NCBI GenBank assembly: GCA_031260745.1
Contig: JAISKY010000212.1
Span: 1-26,668 of the forward strand
Length of the DNA: 26,668 bases
Direction: 5' to 3'
DNA from: Oscillospiraceae bacterium
GTDB lineage: Bacteria > Bacillota > Clostridia > Oscillospirales > Oscillospiraceae
Shown here: positions 1 through 26,668 of the stretch, piece by piece
Numbering within the stretch: position 1 is the stretch's first letter
How the letters are laid out: each line of letters starts with the position of its first letter
Translations under genes and position numbers: made by a program
The notes under the pieces: model-generated
The model's database searches: none
What the model saw: the letters and a program-made list of their open reading frames with translations, nothing else
Told to the model about the DNA's origin: nothing

Positions 1-1
1 A

Positions 2-223
2 ACCGATAAAGTTGACATCAACGCCACCGTAAAGGGCGGCGGAGTCAGCGGACAGGCCGGAGCAATACGCCACGGAATCGCCAGAGCTTTACTGCTTGCT
101 GACGGAGAATACCGCGGCAAACTTAAAGCGGCGGGTTTCCTGACGCGTGACTCCCGTATGAAAGAGCGTAAAAAATACGGACTGAAGGCAGCTCGTAAAG
201 CTCCGCAGTTCAGCAAGAGATAG
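2..223 (+). CDS. rpsI: 30S ribosomal protein S9, 3' part (truncated by window start)
   Basis: Frame from nt 2 reads ...[21 protein letters not shown]...[29 protein letters not shown], the conserved S9 C-terminus; stop TAG at 221-223. Not in the supplied ORF track. Confidence 0.98.
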
Positions 224-238
224 ATTAGCGCGCGTAAT

Positions 239-264
239 TTTAGGCGGGAGTTTTCCCGCCTAAA
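239..264 (+). terminator. Hairpin after rpsI, probable intrinsic terminator (weak U-tract)
   Basis: TTTAGGCGGGA (239-249) / GTTT loop / TCCCGCCTAAA (254-264), perfect 11-bp stem 15 nt after the stop. Confidence 0.65.
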
Positions 265-295
265 CAATTATCGGTTGCAACAGAGGACTTAATTT

Positions 296-670
296 ATGAA
301 TACGCGTTTTATAGATATACTAATCAAAAACTGGTATTTGATAATTTTGCTCATACCCCTTTATCTCGTTGCCGAATATCTTCGCAGAATAGGGCGAGCA
401 ATCGGCGGATTGTTATCGGGTTGGCGTTTTATGGAGGTTCAGGACGCGTATACTATAGACGCTGAACTGCCTAAGAAACTGCCGCTTCACCGCAGAGCAA
501 TGCAACCTCCGGAAAATGAAAGCGATTTCAGGTACAAGCTGTATTTTTTTGGCGGAGAGCTTTTATTAAGCATTCCCGCTGTGGTATTGTTAATCTTTCT
601 AATACAGAACTGGTCGGAATCTATAGTAATACGACAGTTGACTTTACGCCGTTTAGGTGTATATTTATAA
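296..670 (+). CDS. Hypothetical membrane protein, two hydrophobic segments
   Basis: 124-aa ORF with GAGGA RBS at ~283-287; hydrophobic stretches WYLIILLIPLYLVA and LLLSIPAVVLLIFLI; more AT-rich than its neighbours. No family recognised. Confidence 0.55.
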   Translation: MNTRFIDILIKNWYLIILLIPLYLVAEYLRRIGRAIGGLLSGWRFMEVQDAYTIDAELPKKLPLHRRAMQPPENESDFRYKLYFFGGELLLSIPAVVLLIFLIQNWSESIVIRQLTLRRLGVYL

Positions 671-699
671 TTATCTATTAAAACTAAGGGGAACATGTT

Positions 700-1446
700 A
701 TGACAAAGACCGCAAAAACATCAATCGCGGCATTCGCTATACTCGCGGGAATCGCGTTGGGTCTGTTACTAATACGAGCGCCCGGCGGTAAAGAGGCTCA
801 GGCTCAAGCGGCTGAAAACTCCGCCTCCGGCACGCGGGTGATTGAGGTGACAGGCAACGGCTCGGTTAAAGCTACGCCGGACATCGCCGTGCTGAATCTC
901 GGCGTTACCACTACCGGAGCGACTACTGCAATTCAGTCAGAGAACACCGCGATAATGGACAGAGTTCTCGCCGCTGTCAAGGCGCTCGGCGTTGACGAGA
1001 AAGACATCAAAACCGACGGTTATTATATGAATCCCAACTATGATTACGCCAACGGAAAAGGCGATAAAATCATAGGCTATACCGTTTACAACACGATTGA
1101 GGTGAAAGTCCGTAACATCTCCAAAGCCGGTGAGGTTCTCGCGGCGGCTAACGCGGCGGGAGCTAACACAAATAACGGCGTCTCTTTCAGGTTGTCCGAC
1201 GTGGAAACGTATTATAATCAGGCGCTTGAAAAAGCAATCTCCAACGCTAAGGGCAAGGCGTCTACCATAGCTAAGGCTTTGGGAGTGTCCGTAGAACTTC
1301 CCGTCAGGGTTTCGGAGAACGGCAGTTACTACACCCCGATTGCCTACGGCAATTATGACGCTGTCACTGAAAACTCCCAATCTGTGACTATATCGCAAGG
1401 CGAACTGGAAGTAACCGCAAGCGTATCAGTTTCATACGCGTATTAA
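700..1446 (+). CDS. SIMPL-domain (DUF541/BP26-like) exported protein
   Basis: N-terminal signal/anchor, then [41 protein letters not shown] and C-terminal [13 protein letters not shown], typical SIMPL motifs; AAGGGG RBS. Confidence 0.9.
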
Positions 1447-25166: not shown

Positions 25167-25190
25167 TTTACGGGTAATACCAAACCATAG

Positions 25191-25222
25191 AGGCAGATTA
25201 CCAATTATTTGGTAGTCTGCCT
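25191..25222 (+). terminator. Hairpin after amtB::P-II
   Basis: AGGCAGATTACCAA / TTAT / TTGGTAGTCTGCCT, 14-bp stem with one G-U pair, followed by TTAT. Confidence 0.7.
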
Positions 25223-25276
25223 TTATCCGTAGAAATAGCTCAAAAGTATTTATCCATTATTCATTGCTAAAAACTC

Positions 25277-25305
25277 TTGCAAAATGTAAATGATTGTGAT
25301 ATAAT
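25277..25305 (+). promoter_or_regulatory. sigma70-type promoter for dnaA
   Basis: TTGCAA (25277-25282), 17 nt, TGn-TATAAT (25300-25305); GGAGG RBS at ~25333-25337. Confidence 0.75.
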
Positions 25306-25345
25306 AAAATGAATATAATATTCGATAAAAACGGAGGAAATAACA

Positions 25346-26665
25346 GTGCAGTCAGTAGACGACATTTGGAGCGCGGTATTGTCACTTTTGCGCGTTGAAT
25401 TGAGTCAAACCGCGGTGGATTTGTGGTTTGGCGATTGTAAAAACATAACTCTCCAAAATGATGATTTGATTATCTATACTGACTCGGAATTTAAGCGCGA
25501 CATCATTGTGGAACGCTACATAGACAAGCTATCCGCCGCGCTGAAAAACGTATTCGGAGAGGATATTACTCCGCACATTTTATGCGGTGACGAGAAATGG
25601 GAATCTTCCTCGGTAAGCGTTAAAAGCTCCCCGCAATTCAACAAAGAGAAGTACAGCTTTGATAATTTTATAGTCGGTCCTTCAAACCGGCTGGCTTATG
25701 CCGCGGCGGCGGCAGTCGCGGCGGACCGTACCGGAGTATACAATCCGCTGTTTATTTACGGTAATCCCGGTTTGGGTAAAACCCATCTGCTGTACGCAAT
25801 CGCGAATAAGTTCAAGAAAACTCAACCGGAATTTCAAATTATCTACGTAAAAGCCGAAAGCTTTATGAACGAACTTGTAGACGCTATCGTCAACAAAAGG
25901 ATGAATGAATTTCGCAGCAAATATCGTAACGTAGACTTATTATTAGTTGACGATATACAATTTATCGCCGGAAAAGAACAAACTCAGGACGAGTTTTTCC
26001 ATACGTTTAATTCCCTGTTTGAGGGCGAGAAACAAATGGTTCTTACGTCTGACCGACCGCCGAAAGATATGCTCAGATTAGAGGACCGTCTGAAGTCGCG
26101 CTTTGAGTGCGGACTTTTGACCGACATTCAACCGCCGGATTTGGAAACGCGAATCGCGATTGTACGAAGCAAGGCTTCGGAGATTGGAATAAACGTCCCT
26201 CCGAATATTGTGGAGTATATCGCTCAAAATATTACCTCAAACGTCAGGCTTATTGAGGGCGTACTTAAAAAAATCTCCGCTTACCACGAACTTATAAACT
26301 CCAACGACGAACTTGACCAGCAAGCTATCGAAGATATTACCCGCGATATTATTTTGAAAGCGAAAAAATATACTCCCGAACAGATAATTGAGCGCGTAGG
26401 ACTGCATTACTCAATTCAGCCGGAGCAAATCGTCGGCCCTAACCGCGAGAGAAACGTACTTAGCGCGCGTCAGGTTTCGATGTACTTAATCCGGCAGCTT
26501 ACAGACCTTACGCTATTCGATAATGGCAAACTTTTCGGCAGAGACCATTCTACGGTAATACACGCAATTAAAAAGATTGAGGACAAGATTGAAATTGACC
26601 CTCAACTGGCGGATACGATACGCGATATTACTACCGACATCAAGGAATTAAACAACGATAATTAG
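25346..26665 (+). CDS. dnaA: Chromosomal replication initiator DnaA (or a DnaA paralogue)
   Basis: YSFDNFIVGPSN, YNPLFIYGNPGLGKTHLL, DLLLVDDIQFI, TSDRPP, RLKSRFECGL, SNVRLIEG, domain IV RQVSMYL...RDHSTVIHA; GTG start. Confidence 0.95.
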   Translation: MQSVDDIWSAVLSLLRVELSQTAVDLWFGDCKNITLQNDDLIIYTDSEFKRDIIVERYIDKLSAALKNVFGEDITPHILCGDEKWESSSVSVKSSPQFNKEKYSFDNFIVGPSNRLAYAAAAAVAADRTGVYNPLFIYGNPGLGKTHLLYAIANKFKKTQPEFQIIYVKAESFMNELVDAIVNKRMNEFRSKYRNVDLLLVDDIQFIAGKEQTQDEFFHTFNSLFEGEKQMVLTSDRPPKDMLRLEDRLKSRFECGLLTDIQPPDLETRIAIVRSKASEIGINVPPNIVEYIAQNITSNVRLIEGVLKKISAYHELINSNDELDQQAIEDITRDIILKAKKYTPEQIIERVGLHYSIQPEQIVGPNRERNVLSARQVSMYLIRQLTDLTLFDNGKLFGRDHSTVIHAIKKIEDKIEIDPQLADTIRDITTDIKELNNDN

Positions 26666-26668
26666 ATA

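Follow-up and report, generated by a model that had tools for sequence, protein, structure and literature searches.

The window analysed here, a stretch of 26,668 nucleotides, poses a simple question: why is the tetranucleotide GATC absent from DNA occupied by ordinary housekeeping genes? The window is the longest contig of the source genome (G000), an Oscillospiraceae-like bin of 1.94 Mb from a termite-gut metagenome, made of 311 contigs and 72% complete. The closest named proteins carry the Oscillospiraceae label, with 55–61% identity for MnmE. A sequence-only reading had counted by hand no GATC, about three CATG (near 694, 2961 and 15025) and about ten GGCC, and had described CGCG, GTAC and AATT as abundant. 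Exact counts differ from these by at most one base and three sites: GATC is absent, against 78.6 occurrences expected under a maximal-order Markov model built on the window's own 3-mers (Poisson p ~7e-35), while, again relative to Markov expectations, CATG occurs exactly three times (35.6 expected), at 694, 2961 and 15024, and GGCC 13 times (81.0 expected). The stated abundance is borne out for CGCG (396 observed, 404 expected) and GTAC (114 and 117), both at expectation; AATT occurs 128 times, for 181 expected. Missing from the original list was CTAG, found 7 times where 28.7 are expected; also overlooked were 13 six-base palindromes, which together sum up to 3 occurrences for 72 expected. 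The region, with some of its surviving sites, is as follows.

1 to 26668, strand not assigned: housekeeping region of a cellular chromosome with zero GATC (guaB, tmk, mltG, alaS, leuS, mnmE, ispG, polC, amtB-PII)
694 to 697, plus strand: surviving CATG, immediately upstream of the ORF starting at 700
2961 to 2964, plus strand: surviving CATG, in a guaB His-Asp codon pair (CAT GAT) that shares bases with the ATG at 2962
11394 to 11399, plus strand: surviving GGCC, in a leuS Trp-Pro codon pair (frame from coordinates)
15024 to 15027, minus strand: surviving CATG, within the minus-strand ORF 14795-15496, which has no Pfam match
19220 to 23170, plus strand: polC, with 0 GATC, 0 CATG, 1 GGCC and 0 GGATG/CATCC
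21926 to 21931, plus strand: surviving GGCC, in a polC Trp-Pro codon pair (frame from coordinates)

The absence of C before internal Met codons, reported earlier for guaB, alaS and polC, holds in guaB, both alaS pieces and polC, and in leuS as well. In 25 polC orthologues from outside the genus, GATC ranges from 0 to 46 occurrences, CATG from 7 to 30, GGCC from 0 to 67 and GGATG/CATCC from 2 to 19. The CATG at 2961 is shared by guaB and the following ORF (WecB/TagA family), which starts at the ATG at 2962: judging from the frames, this site would be constrained, since a synonymous change of CAT to CAC would abolish the start codon. The alaS gene (6283-8851) is present as two overlapping ORFs, 6283-7449 and 7430-8851, matching consecutive parts of the AlaS model; the split looks like a frameshift, either real or due to an assembly error. 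At the junction the read-mapping table shows no indel, and does not give the read coverage at this spot.

The depletion extends to the whole genome. G000 contains 52 GATC, only 0.9% of the 5,690 expected, 215 CATG (2,657 expected) and 793 GGCC (5,656 expected). A local island effect was rejected, as 269 of the 311 contigs are devoid of GATC; site load varies modestly among contigs (dispersion 2.2). DNA outside ORFs is purged too, with 14 GATC for 403 expected and 1 TTTAAA for 66. That a library, assembly or binning artefact might produce such figures has next to no probability, and is refuted as the cause. The assembly does consist of 311 short contigs, and binning on 4-mers would favour GATC-free contigs, deepening the genome-wide ratio somewhat. 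Against this stand a 26.7-kb contig of core genes without GATC, codon choice rewired in context, and avoidance in other species from other samples; moreover, several stretches of the window, 0.8–1.4 kb long, recur without differences in an independent assembly of the source run, which argues against assembly error.

The missing words were compared with 457 catalogued recognition sites, listed in REBASE. In G000, 15 of them have an observed/expected ratio below 0.1: TTTAAA, GATC, CTTAAG, GATATC, GTCGAC, GTGCAC, TTCGAA, ATCGAT, AACGTT, AGTACT, CATG, CTGCAG, GAGCTC, ATGCAT and CTCGAG. By our own count, about 30 non-nested sites are below half of their expectation: GATC and CATG, originally proposed as the targets, are real ones, but form only a small part of the set. 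When Karlin's Kr is used, seven sites score 0.10 or less, with 0.01 for both GATC and TTTAAA, 0.10 for CATG and 0.23 for GGCC; G000 lies within the published range for under-representation (Kr <=0.78, corrected for shorter words).

The depleted words match Type II sites, including Type IIS ones (GGATG, GAGAC, CTCTTC, GAAGAC). GACN5GTC (0.12), CCTNAGG (0.17) and GGTNACC (0.22), the sites of AhdI, Bsu36I and BstEII, score lowest among the 448 gapped 3+3 palindromes. Non-palindromic hexamers below 0.5 are only 6 out of 1,936: two are the EarI and BbsI sites, and the other four belong to the degenerate Type II sites GWGCWC, GRGCYC, GDGCHC and CYCGRG. Palindromes for which no enzyme is listed are spared: TTGCAA (0.89), TAGCTA (0.98), TAATTA, TATATA and ATATAT all score 0.89–0.99, CGCGCG (0.47) being a mild exception. 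Siblings of TTGCAA and TAGCTA which are enzyme targets (GTGCAC, CTGCAG, ATGCAT, GAGCTC, AAGCTT, CAGCTG) are purged, at 0.05–0.31. GTTAAC, ATTAAT and TGTACA are spared despite having known enzymes, as would be the case if the lineage had encountered only part of them. A general avoidance of palindromes or hairpins was rejected, many palindromes being at expectation. We regard it as highly probable that restriction enzymes caused the depletion, all enzyme-based readings being taken together; long-term exposure to restriction nucleases, as had been proposed, is supported by the way in which purged words follow the enzyme catalogue.

A site-specific mutational bias had been suggested as well. Under such a bias, methyl-cytosine deamination, or Vsr- or MutH-type repair, would remove the words without any selection. 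With proteins and per-gene codon use kept fixed, 33 GATC are observed for 4,568 expected, with depletion in all three frames; the claim that synonymous codon choice had been shaped by the depletion is well founded. Asp is encoded by GAC in 99.4% of the cases when followed by a codon starting with C. Asp-Pro, Asp-His and Asp-Gln, in particular, can escape GATC only by a T>C change, and 99% of them do so (1,655 GAC-C versus 13 GAT-C); Asp before Met requires the opposite C>T change, and is GAT in 99.7% (671 versus 2). Ile after G is ATC in 0.1% of the cases, and Lys and Glu before ATC always have A as third base. Every synonymous escape route is in use in G000. Since different codon contexts need opposite base changes, a single type of lesion cannot explain the purge.

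Sites which survive cluster where no synonymous escape exists. His-Met necessarily generates CATG or CATATG, Trp-Pro (TGG CCN) generates GGCC, and Trp-Met GGATG: such forced pairs account for 58 of 161 CATG (His-Met), 73 of 225 GGATG (Trp-Met) and at least 100 of 620 GGCC (Trp-Pro). Survivors piling up at these pairs, together with the use of all available routes, lead to the rejection of a simple mutational bias. In its favour, the words that a C>T-type change yields (GATT/AATC, TATG/CATA) occur in excess and often replace the site in orthologues, and CTAG depletion is shared across the order; the product excess, however, is partly inherent in the Markov correction. Searches of G000 turned up neither a C5 methyltransferase nor Dam nor MutH, and gapped and asymmetric depleted sites, too, follow the enzyme catalogue. 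Mutational bias is thus largely refuted, and we consider it very improbable. Orthologues are a weak guide to substitution direction, four-fold sites being near saturation (identity 0.40–0.44).

The purge also seems to shift protein sequences, with fewer Trp-Met, Trp-Pro, His-Met and Gly-Pro pairs, as indicated by evidence of moderate strength. When compared with a small control set (five relatives in which GATC, CATG and GGATG are normal, 185,000 residues in all), Trp-Met is the lowest of about 400 dipeptides in G000 (ratio 0.56); Trp-Pro ranks 4th, His-Met 8th and Gly-Pro 24th. Dipeptide depletion correlates with predicted site cost (Spearman 0.21, p 1.7e-5). Aligned orthologues show 55 losses and 21 gains of the four forced pairs, compared with 82 losses and 62 gains of the same pairs reversed (Fisher p 0.028). 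Some caveats apply: Pro-Trp is low too, two reversed pairs are lopsided, and no asymmetry is seen within the genus.

Six genomes compose the genus (G000–G005), all incomplete bins, G001 being 91% and G003 88% complete. In a PolC tree, not including G005, the genus forms one clade (100/100), where (G001,G003) is opposed to (G000,(G002,G004)); by identity, the nearest genome to G000 seems to be G005 (75% versus 58% over PolC 14-518). For both GATC and CATG, counts drop almost to zero in G000, G001 and G003; G002 and G004 keep about half of the expected number, and G005 is close to normal. All six genomes are poor in GGCC (G003 least so) and in TTTAAA; AACGTT is purged, within the genus, in G000 only. 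The avoided set turns over between species, and the comparison with sister genomes, which had been recommended, shows different sets from species to species.

Elsewhere in the order, deep loss of a single site is not rare, being found for GATC in G022 and G041, for TTTAAA in G019, G034, G040, G047, G056 and G057, and for AACGTT in G034 and G051. A total lack of GATC had been judged extreme; extreme it is, but not unique, as G001, G003, G022, G041 and loci L078/L079 also show. Of 61 genomes, G000 alone stays around or under 0.1 in each of the three words tested: it represents the end of a continuum, and is described as extreme only with respect to the genomes compared. Among gut Clostridia loci, L078/L079 have GATC at 0 and GGCC at about 0.03, L015 has GATC at 0.04, and in L027 GATC, CATG and GGCC are all low. 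Locus L179 (G041:C2:1-20000) carries 68 GATC in 20 kb, other sampled G041 contigs having 0–2; it may be either a recent island or a mis-binned piece. Next to mnmE, a termite-gut relative encodes a protein of 2,364 aa that carries PBECR3, MuF_C and PBECR5 domains (L270:12367-19461), probably a polyvalent protein of a mobile element. A literature search on site avoidance in termite-gut or Oscillospiraceae genomes, with subscription papers mostly outside its scope, returned nothing relevant.

Which enzymes may have been responsible? Family searches of the 72% complete bin revealed no D12 or C5 methyltransferase, DpnI, DpnII, MutH/Sau3AI or Mrr, no Dam-class methyltransferase and no Eco57I-type enzyme. 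A motif scan and tblastn with the R-M loci of relatives yielded nothing beyond Type I hsdM/hsdS and a pair of beta-class methyltransferases, all these absences being limited by bin completeness. The Type I locus (L220, G000:C129:708-4278) includes hsdM and a specificity subunit split between ORFs of 185 and 199 aa, with no hsdR seen on its contig. The beta-class DNA methyltransferases are 320-aa paralogues (L222, G000:C98:1342-2304; L221, G000:C207:3614-4576), each preceded by a probable membrane protein of 436 aa, the two membrane proteins being paralogues as well, and with no endonuclease seen beside them. The other deep avoiders, G001 and G003, are likewise poor in these methyltransferase and nuclease genes; the milder avoider G004 features a dpnM-dpnII-dpnA-like cassette and further methyltransferases, and G005 has C5 methyltransferases. 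Canonical MutS, present in G001–G004, was not found in G000, which bin incompleteness may explain.

We favour, as the probable explanation, the view that orthodox Type II endonucleases of some 30 specificities, belonging to serial systems of the lineage itself, now lost or unbinned, selected against their own sites, and that the missing words record their accumulated effect. The lineage would have repeatedly hosted mobile Type II R-M systems, each of which exposed the chromosome to breakage at any unmethylated copy of its site, upon entry of the system, in methylation lapses or after loss of the methyltransferase. Sites would then be removed by weak per-site selection, whose scaled strength, by a rough equilibrium estimate, is about -ln(O/E), or 4.9 for GATC; the gaps would outlast the systems, now lost or lying outside the bin. 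A cognate-type system exists in a close relative, the DpnII cassette for GATC in the genus-mate G004. On the other hand, no cognate system was found in G000, and G001 and G003 are equally gene-poor: of the earlier suggestion of own R-M systems, nuclease exposure as such is sustained, but the cognates were not found in the bin. In addition, methyltransferases are expected to soften site selection in cells (Rusinov et al. 2018, PMC6286503), so that a depth of 0.01 is hard to reach from protected self-systems alone.

Foreign enzymes are a possible, though less likely, source of selection. Chromosomal DNA, largely unmethylated, would regularly enter cells endowed with other Type II systems by conjugative mobilisation, transduction or transformation, and alleles lacking the sites would spread, much as happens in a lytic phage. 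The three deepest avoiders are methyltransferase-poor and the milder ones carry methyltransferases, as this would predict, and depths below 0.1 are typical of non-temperate phages, rarer in prokaryotes (PMC6286503). The inverse link between methyltransferase content and avoidance depth is only suggestive, as it compares three with three incomplete, non-independent bins. Composition-based binning, furthermore, tends to lose recently acquired islands, where R-M genes sit, and may have dropped them here. G000 contains comEC and dprA; yet 34 of 37 genomes have comEC, G005 with its normal GATC among them, and natural competence was rejected as a discriminator. The sisters G002 and G004, milder avoiders with smaller genomes, have no comEC match. 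It is rather doubtful that the bacterium went as far as largely giving up DNA methylation, escaping foreign Type II enzymes in a phage-like manner by the deletion of about 30 words.

A third enzyme-based possibility, quite improbable, is that GATC was lost through the interplay of DpnI and DpnII, methyl-directed and classical respectively, between strains. G022, a 99% complete genome from another genus, has almost no GATC and a stand-alone DpnI (L189, G022:C1:26259-26798), with no D12 methyltransferase match, and G004 has the DpnII cassette. In the survey by Rusinov et al. (2015, PMC4687349), a model of this kind is proposed for Streptococcus pneumoniae and Neisseria; S. pneumoniae, N. meningitidis and E. 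rectale resemble G000 in avoiding GATC without Dam, and the family of G000 includes both enzyme types. DpnI, however, was found in none of the six genomes of the genus, the species of G000 being represented by a single strain, and the DpnI-like activity once suggested would account for GATC alone, one word of about 30. The published cases are also shallow, with Kr 0.43 (N. meningitidis) and 0.58 (S. pneumoniae), versus 0.01 in G000.

Avoidance of orthodox Type II sites in prokaryotes, including traces of lost systems, is established, as reported in the same survey (PMC4687349). As in the prokaryotes described there, palindromic and asymmetric Type II sites are rare in G000, avoidance persists without a cognate system and relatives partly share the pattern; lost systems are allowed for in that category, and in G000 no cognate was found within a 72% bin. 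The difference is one of depth and breadth: among the small part of the published table compared, H. pylori 26695 reaches a minimum of 0.16 among its own sites, and single sites at 0.06–0.10 are known in Pelodictyon, while G000 has 0.01 for GATC and TTTAAA and seven sites at or below 0.10. Near-complete removal of many sites is a trait of non-temperate dsDNA phages, where site elimination reaches CB <0.1 (PMC6286503), and G000 resembles them with 15 sites below 0.1 by the Markov ratio and 7 with Kr <=0.10; unlike them, it is a cellular chromosome, with 23 tRNAs and core bacterial genes over 1.94 Mb, and not a virus. Lineage-specific GATC loss is also known in Calothrix PCC 7103, extreme among 97 cyanobacteria, where GATC, at 16% of expectation compared with 0.9% in G000, was attributed to a GATC endonuclease (Elhai 2015, PMC4390886); Calothrix encodes a candidate enzyme, and none was found in the G000 bin. 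G000 is an unusually clean, extreme case of a known effect, whose depth and breadth are those usually described in lytic phages.

Genomes of this kind would distort k-mer binning, and Hi-C libraries based on GATC, like Sau3AI libraries, would barely register them. The dipeptide data suggest that restriction may bias amino-acid sequence in a cell. Should foreign enzymes be responsible, unprotected DNA would routinely be exposed in the termite gut to Type II enzymes of other cells, under selection strong enough to shift proteins. The genus offers a natural comparison between site avoidance through self-cutting and through gene exchange, its sisters differing both in avoided sites and in number of methyltransferases, and the missing words of G000 can be read as an archive of the roughly 30 restriction specificities that this uncultured lineage has encountered.
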